DNA from: Patescibacteria group bacterium
Lineage (GTDB): Bacteria; Patescibacteriota; Patescibacteriia; UBA1558; S5-K13
Reading direction: 5' to 3'
Assembly (NCBI GenBank): GCA_028692545.1
Contig: JAQUXC010000001.1
Coordinates: 92,658 to 156,657 of the forward strand
DNA: 64,000 nucleotides
The notes under the pieces were generated by a model, which did no database searches, was not told the origin of the DNA, and saw nothing but the letters and a program-made list of their open reading frames with translations. The first letter of the stretch is position 1, and the number at the start of each line of letters is the position of its first letter. Position numbers and translations under genes: made by a program. Shown here piece after piece: positions 8,084-19,795 of this stretch.

Positions 8084-8560
8084 GTGATGAATAAAAAAGG
8101 TTTTACATTAATAGAACTTTTGGTCGTCATAGCTATTATTGGTCTTCTTTCCACATTAGCAGTATTTTCTTTGAATTCTGCTAGAACAAAGGCAAGAGAC
8201 GCAAAAAGAATATCTGATATGAAAATGCTTGGAACAGCAATGGAAATGTATGCTACAGAAGGGGGTACTTATGTAGGTTCTTTAGGTACCACTACTACTG
8301 GTGGTGATCTTTTACATGAATTGGGAAGTATTCAGTATGGGGGAGAATCTTTATTGGATTTATCAGTTTTAAAAGATCCTTCTAGTCCAACTGATGCATG
8401 TACAAGTGGTTCAGATGCTGCATGTAATTATGCTGTAAGAATTGTTCCTACGGCAAGCACCTATCAAATTTGTTTTTATTTAGAGAAAGGTGCTGCAAGT
8501 TTTGGATATGGTCCACATAAATTGATTCAAGGTGGAGGAATGTCAACAGGTTGTGATTAA
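8084..8560 (+). CDS. type IV pilin (class III signal peptide, prepilin)
   Basis: The N-terminus MMNKKGFTLIELLVVIAIIGLL is the prepilin peptidase cleavage/methylation motif. The C-terminal half is Cys-rich and variable. Confidence 0.85.
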   Translation: MMNKKGFTLIELLVVIAIIGLLSTLAVFSLNSARTKARDAKRISDMKMLGTAMEMYATEGGTYVGSLGTTTTGGDLLHELGSIQYGGESLLDLSVLKDPSSPTDACTSGSDAACNYAVRIVPTASTYQICFYLEKGAASFGYGPHKLIQGGGMSTGCD

Positions 8561-8704: not shown

Positions 8705-9205
8705 ATGTTAAAGAGTTACAAAAAAGGTTTTACATTAATAGAACTTTTGGTCGTCATAGCTATTATTGGTCTTCTTTCCACATTAGCAGTATTTTCTTTG
8801 AATTCTGCTAGAACAAAGGCAAGAGACGCAAAAAGAATATCTGATATGAAAATGCTTTCAACAGCAATGGAAATGTATGCTACAGATGAAGGTTCTTATG
8901 ATGATGCTATTACTTCATGTGAAAGTGGGTTATATACTTGCAGTGGTATATCTTACGGAGGAGCTCCTTTACTTGATTTAGTTACGTTGAAAGATCCATC
9001 TAATCCAACTATTCTTTGCAATGGTGAATTAGTACCATGTGAATATACATTTTTTTCTAATCCTGCAGTTTGGGATTGGTCTGTTTGTTTTGGTCTAGAA
9101 AAGCCGACTGGTAACCAAGGAAGTGGTTTGCATGCTATAGGTCCTGGTGGTAGTATTGTCAGTGTGGATGATAATAATATAGATGATTATTGTCGCGATG
9201 AATAA
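8705..9205 (+). CDS. type IV pilin paralog; N-terminal 57 aa nearly identical to pilin 1, C-terminal domain divergent
   Basis: It has the same prepilin motif as pilin 1. Nucleotides 8723-8892 match 8097-8266 with only 2 mismatches. Confidence 0.85.
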   Translation: MLKSYKKGFTLIELLVVIAIIGLLSTLAVFSLNSARTKARDAKRISDMKMLSTAMEMYATDEGSYDDAITSCESGLYTCSGISYGGAPLLDLVTLKDPSNPTILCNGELVPCEYTFFSNPAVWDWSVCFGLEKPTGNQGSGLHAIGPGGSIVSVDDNNIDDYCRDE

Positions 9206-9368: not shown

Positions 9369-9443
9369 TGGTGTCCCGACTAGGAATCGAACCTAGATTA
9401 CAAGCTCCGCAAGCTGGCGTTCTATCCATTGAACTACCGGGAC
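9369..9443 (-). tRNA. tRNA-Arg (anticodon GCG by my fold)
   Basis: The 75-nt cloverleaf folds with acceptor stem GTCCCGG/TCGGGAC, D stem GTTC/GAAC, T arm CTAGG-TTCGATT-CCTAG, discriminator A and encoded CCA. The anticodon loop is TTGCGGA. Confidence 0.65.
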
Positions 9444-10133: not shown

Positions 10134-11675
<1,542 letters not shown>

Positions 11676-11721
11676 AAACTTGTTTTAAGATCGATGAGAA
11701 AAATTCCGCTTTTGGCAGTTC

Positions 11722-11802
11722 TTAAAAGGTAGGAAAATTCAGTTTAAAGCCCAAATTGGCTATTCCGCAATTCTGAATTCGCCCCCAAAATCCGATTGGC
11801 GG
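11722..11802. repeat. 81-bp inverted repeat copy B
   Basis: It is the perfect reverse complement of 10239-10319. It is contiguous with the next repeat, overlapping it by 5 nt (GGCGG). Confidence 0.9.
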
Positions 11803-11899
11803 TGTGTTTTGGAAAATATCCGAACAGAAATGGCGGCGGCTGAGAATCTCCGCGGGGCAGCCGCCGCCAAATCCTCAAAAAACTAATCTGTCGCTTCCC
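11798..11899. repeat. 102-bp inverted repeat copy R1
   Basis: It is the perfect reverse complement of 19609-19710. Its centre region forms the imperfect palindrome CCAAAA...TGGCGG...TTTTGG together with repeat B. Confidence 0.9.
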
Positions 11900-12054
11900 A
11901 AAACTGCCAAAGAACCAGAATGGAAGATATCGGCTCGGACTTCATTTCGGTCAAAAGCGGAATTTTTCTCATCTTTAGATTTATCATACTACGTATTGTA
12001 TTATAATACAATATTGCTTAATAAAGCAAGGAAGAGTAAAATTAAAACAAGTTT

Positions 12055-12261
12055 ATGAACAAAATTTCTAAAAAATTAGGTCAAAACCTTAAAAAAATCC
12101 GTACTCAAAAAGGAATTTCTCAAGGAGACATTTCTCGTAAGTTAGATATGGACAGAGGTTATATTAGTCGTTTAGAAAATGGGATGAAGAATCCTACCCT
12201 TTCTACTATTCAAAAAATAGCTGATTTTTTAGATGTTAGTGTAAACGATTTAATGAAATAA
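12055..12261 (+). CDS. XRE-family helix-turn-helix transcriptional regulator
   Basis: The HTH_3-like segment ISQGDISRKLDMDRGYISRLENG is present. The protein is 68 aa. Confidence 0.7.
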   Translation: MNKISKKLGQNLKKIRTQKGISQGDISRKLDMDRGYISRLENGMKNPTLSTIQKIADFLDVSVNDLMK

Positions 12262-12270
12262 TATAAAAAT

Positions 12271-12717
12271 ATGAGCAATTGGTTAAAAAATATATATGAG
12301 ACTTCTGTTGCTAAAAACATTATTGAAGCTAAAAATACTCGAGATTATCTAAGGAACAATACTAATTTAGAAGAAGTTGCTGGAAAAAAATCTATTGAAT
12401 CCCTTGGTGATCCCAATAAAGTTTCTAAAAAATTAAAAAGAACTTGGTTTTGGCACGATTATGGTATTGCTTTTTATATTCCATTATTCTTTTCTGTATT
12501 ATCCTTTGGTTTTCTAATTTTTTATATAAAAACCTATTTAGCTTTTATTGTTAGTATAGTTGTTTTTATTTTAGCAGTGATAATTACTGTCAAAATTATA
12601 TATCAGAAGCAAAAAAAATATATAAAATGGTATAAATCTTTATCAAAAGAAGATATACAAAAAATGCTTGATATGTATCCCAAAAATGTAAAATATGAAG
12701 AGAAAATAATTAAATAA
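12271..12717 (+). CDS. hypothetical membrane protein
   Basis: It has two TM helices and no recognisable motif. Confidence 0.4.
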   Translation: MSNWLKNIYETSVAKNIIEAKNTRDYLRNNTNLEEVAGKKSIESLGDPNKVSKKLKRTWFWHDYGIAFYIPLFFSVLSFGFLIFYIKTYLAFIVSIVVFILAVIITVKIIYQKQKKYIKWYKSLSKEDIQKMLDMYPKNVKYEEKIIK

Positions 12718-12728
12718 CAAAAAAATAT

Positions 12729-13016
12729 ATGAACATTTACAAAATTAGTAAAAGTCAATTAATTACCTCCTGGATATTTGGAATATTATATGCATTAACA
12801 ATCGCGATAATTTCAGATACAGAGTACATTTTAACTGCGACTTTAGCTATTCTAGTCCCTTATTTATTATTCTTTTACACTTTGGGGTGGAAACAAGTTA
12901 ATAAAGATATTAAAAATACAAAAAAAGAAAATATAATTTACTGTAACGAATGTGGTCAAAAATTATTAGAGGATGCTAAATTTTGCAATAAATGTGGAAA
13001 TACAATTAAGAAATAA
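12729..13016 (+). CDS. small membrane protein with C-terminal zinc ribbon
   Basis: It has 2 TM helices followed by CNECGQKLLEDAKFCNKCGN. Confidence 0.45.
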   Translation: MNIYKISKSQLITSWIFGILYALTIAIISDTEYILTATLAILVPYLLFFYTLGWKQVNKDIKNTKKENIIYCNECGQKLLEDAKFCNKCGNTIKK

Positions 13017-13018
13017 TT

Positions 13019-13816
13019 TTGAAAAATATGGTAGAAGAAAAAACCATAAAAGAAATATATAAGGAGGAAAATTATAAAATAGAAAATTTAGAAGAAAAAA
13101 ATGAAGAAAATTTTTTCTCTTTCAAAGGAAGAATAACTAGGTTGACATACTTTATTAGATCTCTGGTACTATGGATACCTATGGTTATAATATACCTTTT
13201 AATAAAGGATGTGGATTTTATCTTTTCTGTATCAAGCTCACTTATCGGTTTTTTAAGTATGTGTATGTTGTTTTTATATATTTTGTTAATGATGCAAACT
13301 ATCAAAAGATTACATGACACAAATAATAGTGGTTCTTATTGGTTAATATCTTTTATTCCTATAGCCTGTCATGTTCTAGGGATATATTTATTAGTCAAAG
13401 ATGGTACAATTGGAGGAAACAAATATGGTCCAGACCCTAAAAACAGAAAAGAAGGTGAAATATATAATAAAGATGATAACTCAGAGATTAACAAAACTGA
13501 GCCTCAAGAAGATATAATAAAAGGAATTAAAAACAGATATATAATCTCTATTATATTTATACTAGTATTTCTGTTTTTCTTTATTATATTTTTAATTAAA
13601 ACTATAAATGATTTTACTTGGGGATTGTTAATAATTGATCTCCTAATGTTTGGTTTTGTAATTTTTCTATTAGAACGTTTCGTTTCAATAAAAGAAGAAT
13701 TAAATAATTGCAAAAAAGTAGATAAAAGCAACAAAACAAAATATTGTTCCAAATGTGGTAAAAAGATTTCTATTACTGATAAATTTTGCATTAAATGTGG
13801 AAATAAAATTAAATAA
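13019..13816 (+). CDS. DUF805-like membrane protein with C-terminal zinc ribbon
   Basis: It has a GRITRLTYF...GSYWLISFIP region resembling DUF805, several TM helices, and a C-terminal CSKCGKKISITDKFCIKCGN. Confidence 0.4.
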   Translation: MKNMVEEKTIKEIYKEENYKIENLEEKNEENFFSFKGRITRLTYFIRSLVLWIPMVIIYLLIKDVDFIFSVSSSLIGFLSMCMLFLYILLMMQTIKRLHDTNNSGSYWLISFIPIACHVLGIYLLVKDGTIGGNKYGPDPKNRKEGEIYNKDDNSEINKTEPQEDIIKGIKNRYIISIIFILVFLFFFIIFLIKTINDFTWGLLIIDLLMFGFVIFLLERFVSIKEELNNCKKVDKSNKTKYCSKCGKKISITDKFCIKCGNKIK

Positions 13817-13839
13817 TAATCTTAAATATATGCATTGTC

Positions 13840-14408
13840 CAAAATGCAATCACAAATTATCTAGTGGAAGTAAGTTCTGCACTCAATGCGGTAATGAAAT
13901 AAAAATTATCGAAGAAACTTTAAAGGATAAAAAAGTAAGAGAAGAAAGAATAATATCCATAATATTTATATCAACACTCTTTATTCCTTTTATTATTTTT
14001 TTAGTCAAAATTATAAATAATTTTAATTGGGGAATCTTTATACTTGAACTTATTAACTTGTTATTTATAATTATTTGCTTGAAACACTTAATTTATACAG
14101 AAGATGAGACTGATGATTATAAAAATGAAAAAAAGTATTGGTATAATAAAAATATTTCTTATTATCCATTAACAACGATTATCATTTTTTATGGCTTTTT
14201 TATTCTTCTATCTGGTTTATTAAATTCAATGACCTTATTATTTCTTATCCCTTTACTCACAGCATACTTTTTATTTTGTTACCTTTTAAAACTTTGGAAT
14301 CAATGGGATAATGAAATAAATAAAAATATTATTAAAAAATTATTTTCTTATTTAATTGCAATATCTTTTCTAATAATCTTAATTTTCATTGCTTTTCTAG
14401 GTAAATAG
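13840..14408 (+). CDS. membrane protein with N-terminal zinc ribbon (likely true start at 13840, MHCPKCNHK)
   Basis: MHCPKCNHKLSSGSKFCTQCGN is followed by TM helices. The upstream in-frame extension from 13755 overlaps the previous gene. Confidence 0.45.
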
Positions 14409-14467
14409 TTTTACTAAATAATCAAAAGTATATAAATAAAATAAAATTAAATAATAACTTTAAATAT

Positions 14468-15712
14468 ATGCATTGTCCAAAATGTGGTCATAAATTACCT
14501 AACAAAAGTCAATTTTGTACTCAATGTGGAAATAAAATTTTATCTGAAAAAAATTTAGAAAAAAAAGAAGAAAAAGAGCAAAACATTGAAGAAAAAACGA
14601 AAAATAATAAATTAAAAGGTATGGGTGGATGGCTATCTTTTTTTATTTTATCTCTGATTATTTCTAATGTCTTAACTATCATTGAAGGAGCTAAAGATAT
14701 CTCTCTTATTTTAAGTTTTCCATATCTAGTAAGTTGGATGCCTTATTTTTTAATTCTTTTGGATGTCTTAATTTTTGGTAGTGTGATAGCATTTGGAGCT
14801 TATGCTATTTATTCATTTATAAAATTAAAACCCAACGCTGTTCATCTCGGAAAAATGTATTTAATTATAGTTTTTTTAAATAATGTAATGCCATTCATTT
14901 TTTCAGGCGAAACCATTTCTTATGATGAAGGTAGTGTCGTCTCTAGAGCTTTAGGTTATTGTATAACATGGTTTTTATATTTATCTTTATCAGAAAGAAT
15001 CAAAAATACTTTTCCAAAGGAAAAAAGAAAAATAAAAAAAATTGATAAAATTTTATTTTTTATAGTCATAATAATAGCCCTGATTTTTAATATATTAACA
15101 TCTTATATATTGTATAATAATGATGATACTTCAATGGAATATGACGAATTTGATTATAATATAGAAGAAATAGATAATTCTAAAGTAGAAATAGAAAAGA
15201 TAAACACAGAAAAAGACCCAAGTATTGGAGCAAAAAATCCTATAATGGAAATAGAAGAATTTGCTTCTTTTGATTGTCCTTATTCTGCCGTTTTTTATCC
15301 AGTATTGAGAAATTTTGTTCTAGACAACCCAAATAAAGTTAAAATTATTTTTAAAGATGCACCATATGATATCGAAGAGGATCTAAATATGAATTCTCAT
15401 TTAGCTGCTAACTGTGCTTATGAGCAAGGAAAATTTTGGGAAATGCATGATAAAATTTTCGACAACCAAGACAATATTACTAAATCAGTAATTAATCAAC
15501 TAGCAAAAGATATTGATCTAGATTTAGAAAAATTTAATATCTGTCTATCATCCGAGAGATATTATGAGGATATTGAAGAAGATTTTGCAGAAGTTATCAG
15601 TCGTGAGGTCGAAGGTACGCCTACAATTTTTATAAACGGAGAAAAATTTTCTGGTGTAATGTCTAGAGATATATTGGATCAAATCTTAGAAGCAATAGAG
15701 AATAATAGTTAA
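14468..15712 (+). CDS. zinc ribbon-membrane-DsbA-like thioredoxin fold fusion protein
   Basis: The N-terminus is MHCPKCGHKLPNKSQFCTQCGN. A polytopic membrane region follows. The C-terminal roughly 170 aa resemble a DsbA family domain with a CPYS (CxxS) active-site variant. Confidence 0.45.
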   Translation: MHCPKCGHKLPNKSQFCTQCGNKILSEKNLEKKEEKEQNIEEKTKNNKLKGMGGWLSFFILSLIISNVLTIIEGAKDISLILSFPYLVSWMPYFLILLDVLIFGSVIAFGAYAIYSFIKLKPNAVHLGKMYLIIVFLNNVMPFIFSGETISYDEGSVVSRALGYCITWFLYLSLSERIKNTFPKEKRKIKKIDKILFFIVIIIALIFNILTSYILYNNDDTSMEYDEFDYNIEEIDNSKVEIEKINTEKDPSIGAKNPIMEIEEFASFDCPYSAVFYPVLRNFVLDNPNKVKIIFKDAPYDIEEDLNMNSHLAANCAYEQGKFWEMHDKIFDNQDNITKSVINQLAKDIDLDLEKFNICLSSERYYEDIEEDFAEVISREVEGTPTIFINGEKFSGVMSRDILDQILEAIENNS

Positions 15713-15718
15713 GATTCA

Positions 15719-17065
15719 ATGCATTTAAAATTTAAAAAAATAAAATCTATAAAATGGATAATAGTTATTTCTATTGTTTCAATCTTCTTGATTATTATTT
15801 TTTTAATATTCAATTTACAAAAAGAAAAATCCCAAAATTTTCAAGAGATTACTCAAAAATCTTTTAAATATTTAAATAATTCCGGTATTCGTCCAAAATG
15901 GCAAATGGATAACAAAAAAATTGAATACAAGGAATTTCTAAATGATGCATATGATTATCATGATGATATTCAGGATTGGTTTTTTAATAAAAAAGATTTA
16001 AAAGATATTAATAGCTGGCACTTTGATCAAAATATTCAAAAAATAATTTGGCTTAATAAAGAAGATACAGCAATATTAGAAGCCGATGCTCAAATAATTG
16101 GCACCCTGGGGTATTCTAGAAGAACTGGAATAGCTACTTGGAATTGGTCGTGGAATTCAAAAGATACAGAACCGGAATTAACGACTAAAATTGTTGAGGT
16201 AAAAGATTTTGGAGAAATCTATGATTATGATATTCGAGAAGCAAATGATGGAATTAACATTTTAACAGAAAATTATTGGGAAGCTAATGAAAACGATGCA
16301 ATAACAATAGCAGCAATTTCTCAATATATTGTTGGTGGAATAGGAGTATATCCAATGCCAGTAGATGATTATTTAACGGTATATGCATTAATTACAGGAC
16401 TGAGAACAACTAATGAAAAAATAGATTATTCTACGGATGATTATAATAAAAGAGATATCTATAAAAGTTATAAAATTGGAAATAATATTATAAATATATC
16501 AATTCCATATGACAGATATACTTATTATATAGAAAAAGAAACACACAGATTCAATAATGACTATTCAAATATTTTAGAATTTATAACATATAATGAACAA
16601 ACAATTGTAGAAATAGCTAAACAATTACAAATTCATTTTGAACCAGAAGAAGCAATTGAATCAATTTTTTATATAGTTTATCAAAATCGTTATTTAGATG
16701 ATTTTAATTATGGAACCCCAGAGTATCCAAAATATCCAATTGAAACACTAGTAGACGGGGCTGGGGATTGTGAAGATACTTCTTTTTTGCTGACAGCGCT
16801 ATTTAAAGCCTATTTAAATGAATATTACAAAGATGAAAACATTCCCGAAAATGAACAAATTAAAGTAGCGATATTAGAATATCCAGATCACATTGCAGTA
16901 GGAATTGGTTATTCCAATGAACTTTATGAAAATGATACAGAAATTTGTTATCAAAATGAAAATCATTGTTATTATTATATAGAAACAACCTCAGAAGATT
17001 TTTTCTTTGGAGAAATACCAGGGGAATATCAAAATATAAATCCAGTTATTTATATTGTAAAATAA
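15719..17065 (+). CDS. transglutaminase-like (papain-fold cysteine protease) domain protein, membrane anchored
   Basis: It has an N-terminal TM helix. The GAGDCEDTSFLLTALFKAY motif resembles the transglutaminase-like catalytic Cys motif, with downstream His and Asp candidates. Confidence 0.35.
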   Translation: MHLKFKKIKSIKWIIVISIVSIFLIIIFLIFNLQKEKSQNFQEITQKSFKYLNNSGIRPKWQMDNKKIEYKEFLNDAYDYHDDIQDWFFNKKDLKDINSWHFDQNIQKIIWLNKEDTAILEADAQIIGTLGYSRRTGIATWNWSWNSKDTEPELTTKIVEVKDFGEIYDYDIREANDGINILTENYWEANENDAITIAAISQYIVGGIGVYPMPVDDYLTVYALITGLRTTNEKIDYSTDDYNKRDIYKSYKIGNNIINISIPYDRYTYYIEKETHRFNNDYSNILEFITYNEQTIVEIAKQLQIHFEPEEAIESIFYIVYQNRYLDDFNYGTPEYPKYPIETLVDGAGDCEDTSFLLTALFKAYLNEYYKDENIPENEQIKVAILEYPDHIAVGIGYSNELYENDTEICYQNENHCYYYIETTSEDFFFGEIPGEYQNINPVIYIVK

Positions 17066-17072
17066 TAGAAGT

Positions 17073-19475
17073 ATGAAATTAGAAATAATTAATAAAATTA
17101 AAAATTATAAATCATTTCGGGACTTTTCTTGGGATTCTTTTTTTAATTCTCAAAAATTTCACAACACAGTCAATATCTTTTATGGTGAAAATGGATCAGG
17201 CAAAAGTTCTATTTGTAATGTTCTAAAAAGTGTTTGTAATAAAAAATCATTTATAAATAATCAAATTCCCGATGAAATTTGTTTAAAATTTAATGATGGA
17301 GATTATAAATTTTCAAATGAATTAAATACTTGGGATAAGTATAAAAATAGTGACGATTTTTTATTTTTTGATCGTGAATTTGTTCATAACAATATACATT
17401 TAGGAAATACAAGAAAAACAGACGCAGAGGGTCAAGAACAAAAATCAGGAAAAATGATTATTGAATTTGACGGTAAAGCGATAGAACTTCGCAAATTAAA
17501 AAACAGTTTAAAGAAACAAATTTCAAAAAGCGAAGAAAATGAACCAGAAACATTGTTTGACCAACTAAAAAGTTTCCGAGAAGAACACAAAGATACTTTG
17601 AATTTTTCACTTTTAGATAATGAAGAGTCCTTGTTTACTACTTATAAAGATAAAACAAAAAAGGAAATCACTAAAATAAAAAAAGAATTCGCAGAAGAAA
17701 GAAAGGAAATTGAAAAAAAACTTGAAACTGACAAGGCAACTCAAAAACAGGTCAATAATATCCAAAATTCAATTTCTGAAATAAATAACGAAGAAAATGA
17801 ACTATCATTATCAGGACAATCTGATTATCAATTAATTTTCAATTTTGACTTAAAAGAACAGGTTCAAATACAAGCCGAACAAGATTTAATTACCAAAATA
17901 AGACAACACAAAGATTTTTTCCAAACTGGTATTGAAATCAGAGAAGAATATAAAAATAAATGTCCTTTTTGTCAGTCAAAGAATGAAGAAGAAAGTGTTG
18001 AAAAAATTATTAAATCCTACAATGATATTTTTGACGACACTTATCAAAAACAGCTCCAAATATTTAAAAATAACAAAAAAATACTGATTGAAGAACTAGA
18101 AAAAATCATTAATGTAATTAAAGATTATGACCTAAATTCTATTTTCGTTTCTTTAAGTGAACTTAATCAAAAATATAGAATCAGAGACATTTATTCAGTT
18201 GATGAACAAAAAAAATATAAAAAATCGACAACGAACAAAATTGCAAATTTAAAGAAAAAAATTGAAAATTTAAAAAAACCAAATAATGAAAATATAGAAG
18301 AAATTTACAATGAAGCAAAGATGGAATTTGAAACTTTAGAAACTTTTTTTGATGATATTTATGAATTTATTGAAGAAAAAAATACACTAATTCGTAAATT
18401 TAAGACTGAAAATACAGACGATAAAATACAGCAAAGAATCACAACAAACAATCAAAAAATAAAAGAAATTGATCTGAAAATTACTTTTTTAAATGAAAAG
18501 AAAATTGAAAAACAAAAGCAGAAAGAAGCTAAAGAAAAAGATCTTGCCATTATTCAAAAAAGATTTGAAATTTTAAAAGCAAAACATGATAAGGTTAAGG
18601 AAGATTATGAAAAATATTGTTCAGAAGAAGTTTTTAATAAAACTTTAAAAAAAATTGAAGAATATTTTGATAAATTCAAATTCAATTTTAAATTAAAACT
18701 GAAGACAGAAAAAACAAGAAATAAAACAGAACTTCCTTTTGCTTTTAAAGTTTTAGATAATGAAAAAAATGAAAGAGATTTTAAAGAAGGATTATCAGAA
18801 GGAGAATTGCAAGTTTTATCATTATGCTTTTTCTTTGCATTTCTCGATATACAAATAGACCCTCAAAATAAAATTTTAATATTTGATGATCCTATAACAA
18901 GTCTTGATAACAACAATTTAAGTCATTTAGTCGAACTAATTACAGAAAAACACACGAAGTTTTCTCAGACCTTTATTTTCACTCATCATAGAACATTTTT
19001 TAAGTTTTTGAGATCTAAATTCAATTTACAAAAAAAACCAAATAAAAAAGCAAGTGAATATTATATTTTTAGAAATAAAAAAGACTTTGGCGGTAGTTTT
19101 ATTTGTCCAAATAAAGTTGATAATATAAAACAAAAATTAAAAAATCTTGATTCACATATTAGTCAAGAATCTCAAAACGGTGGTATATCCGAAGAAAGTC
19201 TTATTATTGAATATGGGCAATATCTAAGATATGAAATAGAAAATTATATCAAAAATGACTTACTTCATATAAATAAGCCAAATTTCGGCAATGTTATTGA
19301 TTGTTTAGTAAAAAATAAAGAAAAACAAGAAGATATTCCTGTTGAAGATTTAAAAAAATTGAAAGAAATTTATTCATTCTGTAATTGGACAGCTTCACAT
19401 GTTAATGTTGGAGATGATCCTGGACTTAGGCAATTAAAAGATAAAATCAACGATTTTATCAATATTATTAAATAA
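17073..19475 (+). CDS. RloC-like (AAA_13 type) ABC ATPase with Rad50-like zinc-hook coiled coil; candidate anticodon nuclease / defence protein
   Basis: The protein is 800 aa. It has the Walker A GENGSGKSS, a long Lys/Glu-rich coiled-coil insert containing CPFCQ, an LSEGELQ signature-like motif, and the Walker B/D-loop ILIFDDPITSLD. The C-terminal roughly 200 aa carry R-x-E...H candidate residues. Confidence 0.5.
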   Translation: MKLEIINKIKNYKSFRDFSWDSFFNSQKFHNTVNIFYGENGSGKSSICNVLKSVCNKKSFINNQIPDEICLKFNDGDYKFSNELNTWDKYKNSDDFLFFDREFVHNNIHLGNTRKTDAEGQEQKSGKMIIEFDGKAIELRKLKNSLKKQISKSEENEPETLFDQLKSFREEHKDTLNFSLLDNEESLFTTYKDKTKKEITKIKKEFAEERKEIEKKLETDKATQKQVNNIQNSISEINNEENELSLSGQSDYQLIFNFDLKEQVQIQAEQDLITKIRQHKDFFQTGIEIREEYKNKCPFCQSKNEEESVEKIIKSYNDIFDDTYQKQLQIFKNNKKILIEELEKIINVIKDYDLNSIFVSLSELNQKYRIRDIYSVDEQKKYKKSTTNKIANLKKKIENLKKPNNENIEEIYNEAKMEFETLETFFDDIYEFIEEKNTLIRKFKTENTDDKIQQRITTNNQKIKEIDLKITFLNEKKIEKQKQKEAKEKDLAIIQKRFEILKAKHDKVKEDYEKYCSEEVFNKTLKKIEEYFDKFKFNFKLKLKTEKTRNKTELPFAFKVLDNEKNERDFKEGLSEGELQVLSLCFFFAFLDIQIDPQNKILIFDDPITSLDNNNLSHLVELITEKHTKFSQTFIFTHHRTFFKFLRSKFNLQKKPNKKASEYYIFRNKKDFGGSFICPNKVDNIKQKLKNLDSHISQESQNGGISEESLIIEYGQYLRYEIENYIKNDLLHINKPNFGNVIDCLVKNKEKQEDIPVEDLKKLKEIYSFCNWTASHVNVGDDPGLRQLKDKINDFINIIK

Positions 19476-19490
19476 AAGAATTTGCCGCCA

Positions 19491-19512
19491 AGCGATTAGC
19501 GAAAGCTAATCG
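19491..19512 (+). other. perfect hairpin gcgattagc-GAAA-gctaatcgc
   Basis: It has a 9-bp stem with a GNRA loop and lies just 3' of the RloC-like gene. Confidence 0.6.
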
Positions 19513-19540
19513 CACATTATGAATTTCAAACCTTATTTAC

Positions 19541-19575
19541 CCCGCACCTTTTCTAAAAAAATGGTGCGGGGTGTA
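19541..19575 (+). terminator. GC-rich hairpin ccccgcacc/ggtgcgggg with A/T runs (bidirectional terminator-like)
   Basis: A 9-bp GC stem is flanked by a T run on one side and an A run on the other. Confidence 0.5.
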
Positions 19576-19608
19576 TTTGAAATCCGTAGTGAAGAAAAAC
19601 TTGAAATC

Positions 19609-19710
19609 GGGGAAGCGACAGATTAGTTTTTTGAGGATTTGGCGGCGGCTGCCCCGCGGAGATTCTCAGCCGCCGCCATTTCTGTTCGGATATTTTCCAA
19701 AACACACCGC
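19609..19710. repeat. 102-bp inverted repeat copy R1-prime (right end of integrated element)
   Basis: It is the perfect reverse complement of 11798-11899. Confidence 0.9.
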
Positions 19711-19739
19711 CACCCCGTGATAGCACGATGACCCCCATT

Positions 19740-19795
19740 TTATAGGGTCTTAGAGCTAGCACGAGGAAGTTCGAATCCCTTTGTGTCCGCCAAGA
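19740..19795 (+). other. degenerate duplicate of tRNA-Ser 3' end (T arm, acceptor, CCA); att scar
   Basis: gaggaagttcgaatccctttgtgtccgcca resembles gagggttcgaatccctccctctccgcca of the intact tRNA-Ser. It is in the same orientation and no full tRNA is present. Confidence 0.5.

Follow-up and report, generated by a model that had tools for sequence, protein, structure and literature searches.

We conclude that the open reading frame (ORF) at 17073-19475 (+) in a 64-kb stretch of a Patescibacteria genome assembly (64,000 nt of contig JAQUXC010000001.1, hereafter the window, to whose positions all coordinates refer) is likely to encode a stand-alone anticodon nuclease of the RloC family, probably carried as cargo of a mobile element, and that the gene directly upstream, which encodes a 448-aa transglutaminase-like protein, is a mere neighbour. 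The assignment of the 800-aa product draws on its match to Pfam AAA_13, on the PADLOC candidate system PDC-S06, on homologues, and on an AlphaFold2 (AF2) model and its Foldseek matches. The preliminary description of this DNA had proposed that an RloC-like ATPase and the transglutaminase-like protein form a paired defence module. Both ORFs (15719-17065, +, 448 aa; 17073-19475, +, 800 aa) are present, every motif that it cited is found in its place, and the RloC-type architecture is borne out by the evidence below; the pairing is not.

The predicted 800-aa protein consists of a Rad50-like ATP-binding cassette (ABC) ATPase head, a coiled-coil and zinc-hook insert that splits this head, and a C-terminal HEPN-type anticodon-nuclease (ACNase) domain. 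Pfam AAA_13 matched it with 108.3 bits (6e-31; cutoff 36) over the whole profile, residues 26-782 aligning to profile positions 12-692 of 713, whereas SMC_N reached 38.6 bits, under its own cutoff of 40, so that the best profile match was not to a repair ATPase of the SMC or RecN type. The best match in PADLOC was the single-gene candidate PDC-S06 (1e-29), with other named systems far weaker, and 13 PDC-S06 models of 727-862 positions matched with E-values of 1e-29 to 4e-13. PDC-S06 is a computational candidate label without a described mechanism, and in the literature that we found it appears only as an entry in inventories of defence systems. NCBIfam gave nothing over cutoff for the 800-aa or the 448-aa protein; below cutoff, the former weakly matched RecF and Rad50. 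Sequence and profile searches of the PDB returned SMC, Rad50 and AriA heads only, and no RloC or PrrC structure.

The motifs of an ABC ATPase are conserved throughout an alignment of 22 sequences with 31-79% identity (alignment A1). The Walker A motif or P-loop, GENGSGKS, occupies residues 38-45 (17184-17207, +), with G38, E39, N40, G41, G43, K44 and S45 invariant; Q123 is invariant too. The ABC signature LSEGE (residues 574-578; 18792-18806, +), in which S575, E576 and E578 are invariant, is followed by the Walker B motif and D-loop, ILIFDDPITSLD (residues 601-612; 18873-18908, +), with F604, D605, D606, P607, I608, T609, S610, L611 and D612 invariant, and by the H-loop with the linchpin histidine, FTHH (residues 636-639; 18978-18989, +), with H638 and H639 invariant. 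Residues 131-560 contain 18% Lys and 14% Glu, and the apex of the helical insert carries the zinc-hook motif CPFC (residues 297-300; 17961-17972, +), a putative zinc site in which C297, P298 and C300 are invariant. A profile built from A1 weakly matched the Rad50 hook structures 1l8d and 6zff in the PDB (E 0.02-0.04). About 160 residues lie C-terminal of the H-loop, and they include the putative ACNase active-site span Arg719-x3-Glu723-x52-Ser775-His776 (19227-19400, +), recognized from A1 and the published RloC motif. Here R719, E723, N771 and H776 are invariant; in the window protein the Arg-x3-Glu element reads R719-YEI-E723, and Ser775 precedes the histidine.

The AF2 model (mean predicted local distance difference test score, pLDDT, of 80) is consistent with this plan. 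It has a split head, long helices over residues 121-532 and an all-alpha C-terminal domain, and it places the hook in a loop (residues 293-304) flanked by helices 280-292 and 305-351. The top PDB matches of the model in Foldseek were Rad50, SMC and LmuB. Nineteen distant members of AAA_13 in other phyla align with the window protein in Walker A, a single CxxC, SEGE, DDPxTSLD, R-x3-E and (S/G)H.

RloC of Geobacillus kaustophilus (GkaRloC, YP_146738; COG4694, Pfam AAA_13) is a wobble-nucleotide-excising, zinc-responsive anticodon nuclease. The family is defined by ABC motifs, a coiled-coil insert with CX2C and a C-proximal Arg-X3-Glu-X36-52-His motif, often with Ser before the His (PMC2610378), and at the level of sequence the 800-aa protein has every testable one of these features. 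GkaRloC is 804 aa long, with hook residue Cys291 and the triad R692/E696/H737 (PMC2610378). The window protein resembles it in its length of 800 aa, in the Walker A lysine, which is residue 44 in both, in the CxxC hook within a coiled-coil insert (C297), and in the order Arg-x3-Glu-x(36-52)-Ser-His. Its putative triad Arg719/Glu723/His776 thus fits the published motif, although the Glu-His spacing of 52 is the largest that this motif allows and that of GkaRloC is 40. The signature, the Walker B motif with D-loop and the linchpin histidine of RloC are likewise all found in the window protein, and its gene is probably the cargo of an integrated element, like rloC. There are two further departures from RloC: the HEPN arginine near the histidine is Asn in the clade of the window protein, and members of this clade lie mostly inside restriction-modification (R-M) operons of diverse types, whereas RloC has been described as rarely R-M-linked.

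A second known anticodon nuclease, PrrC, agrees less well. EcoPrrC, the tRNA-Lys anticodon nuclease of the Escherichia coli type Ic EcoprrI locus, also joins an N-terminal ABC NTPase domain to a C-terminal ACNase domain with Arg-x3-Glu...His, and relatives of the window protein take PrrC-like places in type I operons (e.g. hsdM-hsdS-X-hsdR in locus L001). However, PrrC has about 400 aa, is without coiled coil or zinc hook, and is always linked to type Ic R-M genes, with a PrrC box and a LARP motif, whereas the window protein has 800 aa, with CPFC in a helical insert of some 400 residues, and no R-M gene was found around it: 12 reference R-M proteins used as queries had no homologue in the whole 64-kb window. 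By length, hook and R-M linkage, the predicted protein is not a member of PrrC.

A database search yielded 112 homologues of the 800-aa protein, in dozens of clusters and with 45-79% identity. The few named homologues in this range are Patescibacteria or Saccharibacteria bins, and homologues labelled Deltaproteobacteria and Thermoproteota have about 33% identity. Several homologues (49-76% identity, three of them at 76%) bear the Joint Genome Institute (JGI) name 'wobble nucleotide-excising tRNase'. The view that such proteins are scarcely documented in bacteria of the candidate phyla radiation (CPR) was therefore overstated. In an exhaustive profile search, 129 cluster representatives reached E<=1e-30 and 2,298 reached E<=1e-10, which makes the family a populous one, and the many homologues of both the 800-aa and the 448-aa protein imply that neither ORF is a chance reading frame. 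Plasmid and viral collections contained distant AAA_13 relatives only. Together, these results support the predicted product as an ordinary further member of RloC, a known family of anti-phage enzymes that act by suicidal tRNA cleavage.

By analogy with GkaRloC, the Rad50-like ABC heads would dimerise, and the coiled-coil insert would keep the C-terminal RNase silent through intramolecular zinc-hook joints. A phage-linked cue, which for GkaRloC consists of DNA ends and ATP hydrolysis, would then free the RNase. The HEPN-type RNase, with its putative site Arg719/Glu723/His776, would excise the wobble nucleotide in tRNA anticodon loops, and this cleavage would halt translation in the infected cell, amounting to abortive infection.

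The genomic context of the clade was compared in 20 non-redundant loci of ATPase relatives with 28-77% identity (L001, L003, L005-L011, L013, L060-L063, L066-L069, L072 and L073). In 15 of the 20, R-M genes lie directly upstream and co-directional, with the ATPase relative as the terminal gene. They are of type I in L001 (hsdM-hsdS-X-hsdR), L003, L007, L011, L068 and L069; of type II in L005 and L062 (HinfI), L060 (AlwI), L009 (HaeII and Vsr), L066 (MunI) and L008 (methyltransferases); of the MmeI/Eco57I type (IIG/L) in L061 and L073; and of the GmrSD/HNH type (type IV) in L006. In L063 the neighbours are a gene for a 1507-aa helicase and a serine recombinase gene homologous to that of the window, L010 and L072 have conjugation genes, and the remaining two loci, L013 and L067, have no informative neighbours. 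An HTH-Fic gene (HTH, helix-turn-helix) stands directly ahead of hsdM in L001; RloC-like ABC-HEPN genes with R-M and Fic/Doc neighbours have been described by Anantharaman et al. (PMC3710099). An early estimate placed 8 of 72 rloC genes at R-M loci (PMC2610378), and the R-M linkage of the present clade is much stronger than in this classical description. These neighbourhoods fit the 'restriction-linked' origin of the RloC name. They also reverse the contrast that had been drawn with the R-M neighbours of PrrC, since the clade is mostly R-M-linked and the window copy is the exception.

Two of these loci have peculiarities of their own. In L061 (969-4586), the MmeI/Eco57I-like gene that precedes the gene of ATPase homologue P0030 is in at least five fragments when read with translation table 11, and the ATPase gene, read with the same table, does not give the query protein, which suggests that the genome is recoded (e.g. 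with UGA as a sense codon) or that this is a pseudogene. In L063 (6001-9678; duplicate L071), the gene of the ATPase relative, with 53% identity, is separated by 18 nt from a convergent serine recombinase gene, measured at the 3' end of the latter. This recombinase matches that of the window (phmmer 2.5e-61), so that the same two gene types occur in a different linear order.

The departure from RloC at the HEPN arginine concerns the catalytic region. The window protein has no Arg in residues 760-776, and Asn771, five positions before the histidine (His-5), is invariant across the clade in A1, whereas many distant AAA_13 relatives carry at His-5 the arginine of the HEPN motif Rx4-6H (PMC3710099). 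In PrrC, Arg349 is strictly essential and the position of Asn352 needs an amide, and both residues are said to be conserved in RloC (PMC3025547). With the HEPN arginine replaced by Asn771, the active site of the clade may be non-canonical; since the amide residue Asn352 of PrrC is also near the histidine, N771 may instead be its counterpart and not a loss. That the protein is an RloC-like ABC-HEPN protein with a non-canonical nuclease, directed at other RNA targets or acting mainly as an R-M-linked regulator, appears unlikely to us. The invariant Asn in place of an arginine whose PrrC counterpart is essential speaks for it, as does the linkage to many R-M types, which is unlike classical RloC; however, the published Arg-x3-Glu...His triad is intact and invariant, N771 may match the essential Asn352, and R-M-embedded RloC-like ABC-HEPN genes are already known from the literature (PMC3710099).

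In the window, the RloC-like gene is the last of a block of eight co-directional genes separated by 2-59 nt. Six of the eight encode proteins with transmembrane (TM) segments; the HTH protein and the ATPase are without them. No terminator-like site was found between any two genes of the block, and one such match lies inside ORF 13019-13816. The short gaps and the lack of intergenic terminator-like sites make co-transcription of the block, including the 448-aa and 800-aa genes, plausible. A promoter scan gave 56 sites against 55.5 expected, and in DNA this rich in AT it was uninformative. The first gene of the block encodes a 68-aa HTH protein resembling R-M controllers (12055-12261, +; HTH_3 4e-18; PADLOC Control_protein 1.9e-14). 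It is 58% identical to the HTH protein (L005 1-303) that heads an operon of controller, HinfI, two methyltransferases and RloC in L005, and 46% identical to the one (L009 231-419) that heads an operon of controller, methyltransferase, HaeII, Vsr and RloC in L009. A 20-nt perfect palindrome, TATTGTATTATAATACAATA (11994-12013), unique in the window and 41 nt upstream of the HTH start, is a candidate operator, and its half-sites TTGTAT/ATACAA also occur upstream of the homologous HTH gene in L005. Because the block has such an HTH gene at its head and the RloC-like gene at its end, as in the R-M-plus-RloC operons of relatives, we infer as its likeliest history that it derived from a controller-R-M-RloC cassette whose R-M interior was replaced or lost and is now a membrane module.

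The interior of the block comprises, at 12729-14538, an array of paralogous genes for zinc-ribbon membrane proteins. Over 100 nt that include upstream sequence, two of the gene starts (13801-13900 and 14439-14538) are 82% identical, which points to a recent tandem duplication. ORF 14468-15712 (+) encodes a protein with a zinc ribbon, several TM segments and a DsbA-like thioredoxin domain (Thioredoxin_4 3e-22, DSBA 6e-17). In this domain (residues ~266-272) FDCPYS is found at the place expected for CxxC, and the homologue in L004 (6450-7976) has FDDPYS, so that the redox site looks degenerate.

The block occupies 11900-19609, between the arms of a 103-nt perfect inverted repeat (100% complementary; left arm 11797-11899, right arm 19610-19712). 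It adjoins the gene of a large serine recombinase (513-aa ORF, 10134-11675, -) with Resolvase, Recombinase and Zn_ribbon_recom domains and below-cutoff similarity to XisF/Ccr recombinases in NCBIfam. This unit is abutted by a gene for tRNA-Ser(GCT) (10155-10244, +; ARAGORN; Rfam tRNA, 51.5 bits). The recombinase gene is itself bracketed by an 81-nt perfect inverted repeat, the left arm of which (10239-10319) opens with the tRNA 3' end CCGCCA; the right arm (11722-11802) overlaps the 103-nt arm by a 6-nt core. The last ~60 recombinase codons pass through the repeat arm and the antisense strand of the tRNA gene. All three sites contain CCGCCA, the 6 nt at the 3' end of the tRNA. The 178-nt segment 11722-11899, when reverse-complemented, reads as right outer arm, core and left outer arm joined together. 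It resembles the attP junction of an excised circle, yet it lies inside the element, inverted and directly upstream of the recombinase gene. Contigs of two Logan assemblies from separate runs stop exactly 30 nt (k-1) into the 103-nt arm wherever they run into it, at both ends of L064 and at the downstream end of L065; the repeat is therefore a real branch point in the reads. Misassembly of integrated and excised forms was considered as the source of the inverted attP-like segment and rejected, as such a mixture gives direct junctions and both Logan assemblies branch at the repeat.

A repeat-bounded block beside a serine recombinase gene and tRNA-Ser indicates that the RloC-like gene was probably acquired as mobile cargo, in agreement with the location that had been proposed for it. 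Integrated elements often have rloC as their single cargo (PMC3458546), and mobile carriage of the gene here is therefore ordinary. The flanks are ordinary as well, with type II secretion system E and F genes to the left and genes for Rnk, a major facilitator superfamily protein, a Na/Ca exchanger and RelA/SpoT to the right. The GC-rich hairpin of the repeat arm had no exact match in metagenome contigs, and the attachment-arm sequences occurred in no other fetched locus.

Several smaller repeats accompany the element. The 178-nt segment is flanked by a 22-nt perfect inverted repeat (11693-11714 / 11952-11973), and part of the recombinase coding sequence near its 3' end (10319-10345) recurs at 11921-11947 as a 93% reverse-complement copy. 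Immediately beyond the right repeat arm, 19766-19795 holds a remnant like a tRNA 3' end, gaggaagttcgaatccctttgtgtccgcca, similar to the tRNA-Ser gene in its T-arm and acceptor end (10217-10244); it received no tRNA call from ARAGORN or Rfam and may be left over from an earlier integration. At this right junction Rfam gave sub-threshold noise only and ARAGORN called no tRNA or tmRNA, and a tmRNA at 19610-19795 was dropped as a candidate. Further to the left, a 181-nt direct repeat (8093-8273 / 8720-8900), whose copies are 627 nt apart and 97% identical, is situated upstream of tRNA-Arg(GCG) at 9369-9443.

These contexts permit a more far-reaching proposal, which we think rather improbable. The CPR-centred clade with Asn for the HEPN Arg would act as a portable 'guard': placed last in operons under controller regulation, at their 3' end, it would monitor the genes upstream, usually those of an R-M system of any type and in the window a membrane or envelope module. 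In the window it would travel on a serine-recombinase element whose cargo, bracketed by perfect inverted copies of the element's own attachment arms, may invert. If this proposal were true, an RloC-like nuclease would here be wired to a first line other than R-M, such as a superinfection-exclusion or envelope module.

The gene preceding the RloC-like gene (15719-17065, +) encodes a membrane-anchored protein of 448 aa with a DUF6882 domain (residues 72-227, 4e-17 in Pfam) and a domain of transglutaminase-like cysteine-protease fold, as assigned from Pfam, an alignment, an AF2 model and Foldseek. By sequence the latter domain stays below family cutoffs (Transglut_core E 0.07-0.16; LapG in NCBIfam, 16 bits against a cutoff of 320), and its homologues include proteins with Pfam Transglut_core matches and the JGI name 'transglutaminase-like cysteine proteinase'. 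The alignment has invariant Cys351 (in GDCEDTS), His391 and Glu422 (in YYYIETT). AF2 modelled residues 240-448 with pLDDT 84-96, and the best PDB matches of this part in Foldseek were LapG (4u65_E, probability 1.00), 3isr (0.99), 4fgq_B (0.98), 3kd4, TgpA and PNGase, 3isr and 3kd4 being putative cysteine proteases. A papain-like transglutaminase core with a predicted Cys-His-acid triad thus holds at the level of fold. A single hydrophobic or TM segment (residues 13-31) follows a Lys-rich N-terminus, so that by the positive-inside rule the catalytic domain is probably extracytoplasmic. The protein therefore agrees with LapG/BTLCP and other bacterial transglutaminase-like cysteine proteases in fold, invariant Cys351, His391 and acidic Glu422, and probable location; it differs from LapG-type proteases in its sub-cutoff sequence similarity, in the additional DUF6882 and in having Glu and not Asp at the third position. 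Its earlier description as a membrane-anchored transglutaminase-like putative Cys protease can stand as regards the fold.

A joint two-gene defence system, with the protease as, for example, sensor or co-effector of the RloC-like ATPase, would be suggested by the position of the two genes, which are on the same strand, 7 nt apart, with no terminator-like site between them and inside one repeat-bounded block, and transglutaminase-HEPN combinations have been described for other proteins of defence (PMC3710099). However, none of the 20 ATPase-relative loci had a homologue of the 448-aa protein in the fetched flanks (phmmer E<=1e-4; tblastn E<=1e-5). The sole full-length homologue of the 448-aa protein, P0113 (57% identity; locus L004), has no AAA_13 gene within 8 kb. 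The gene ahead of P0113 instead encodes a zinc-ribbon/DsbA-like protein, the thioredoxin domain of which is 62% identical to that of window ORF 14468-15712, and zinc-ribbon membrane proteins surround P0113, as in the window. The conserved unit is thus the membrane module of zinc-ribbon, DsbA-like and DUF6882/transglutaminase-like proteins. In addition, the catalytic domain of the 448-aa protein is probably outside the cell whereas the ATPase has no TM segment, and no PADLOC model matches the 448-aa protein. We regard such a two-gene system as very improbable. The co-occurrence in other genomes that the supposed pairing implied was not seen in the loci compared, and the 448-aa gene is part of an envelope-directed gene set, adjacent by accident of cluster composition, and not a partner.

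The structural resemblance to Rad50/SbcC and to LmuB of Lamassu lies in the head fold and in the antiparallel helices of the insert (Foldseek E 4e-8 to 5e-7), and in the weak profile similarity to the Rad50 hook. In contrast to the window protein, those proteins have no C-terminal RNase-like domain and work with separate nuclease subunits (Mre11/SbcD and LmuA), which are absent here. A repair ATPase of the Rad50/SbcC/RecN type, or an SMC-like ATPase, without RNase function would accord with the Rad50 and SMC heads among the best solved-structure matches and with the weak sub-cutoff RecF and Rad50 matches in NCBIfam, but it is hardly credible in view of an AAA_13 score far above the sub-cutoff SMC_N score, of a conserved C-terminal domain of ~160 residues with an invariant R-x3-E...S-H that Rad50/SbcC do not have (PMC2610378), and of neighbours that, in relatives, are R-M genes, while no Mre11/SbcD-type domain was detected in any gene of the block (Pfam) and no such gene was found beside relatives.

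Several points nevertheless weigh against ORF 17073-19475 being a stand-alone RloC-family anticodon nuclease. AF2 gave its C-terminal domain only moderate confidence, with pLDDT of about 45-85. None of the PADLOC models that matched at E up to 10 is named RloC or PrrC, the library's content of such models not being established. The comparison with GkaRloC and PrrC is one of published motifs and descriptions. The HEPN arginine, essential as Arg349 in PrrC, is replaced by the invariant Asn771. RNase activity, tRNA target and trigger are put forward by analogy. The replacement of R-M genes in the block is reconstructed from three loci. Finally, the RloC-like gene, 7 nt from the 448-aa gene and probably co-transcribed with it, may be functionally linked to the membrane module at this locus.

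The negative result on pairing warns against labelling a transglutaminase-like gene as a defence component by adjacency alone. As the RloC family is already automatically annotated, one further member changes little, and only the linkage of the clade to R-M genes irrespective of their type and the odd repeat architecture are worth a further look. The occurrence of the clade, mainly Patescibacteria as far as its members are named, on R-M operons of types I, II and IIG/L and of the GmrSD-like type lends support to ABC-HEPN proteins as a second line of defence behind restriction. The window copy suggests, moreover, that a controller HTH gene and an RloC-like gene can persist as the ends of a cassette while its interior is exchanged.

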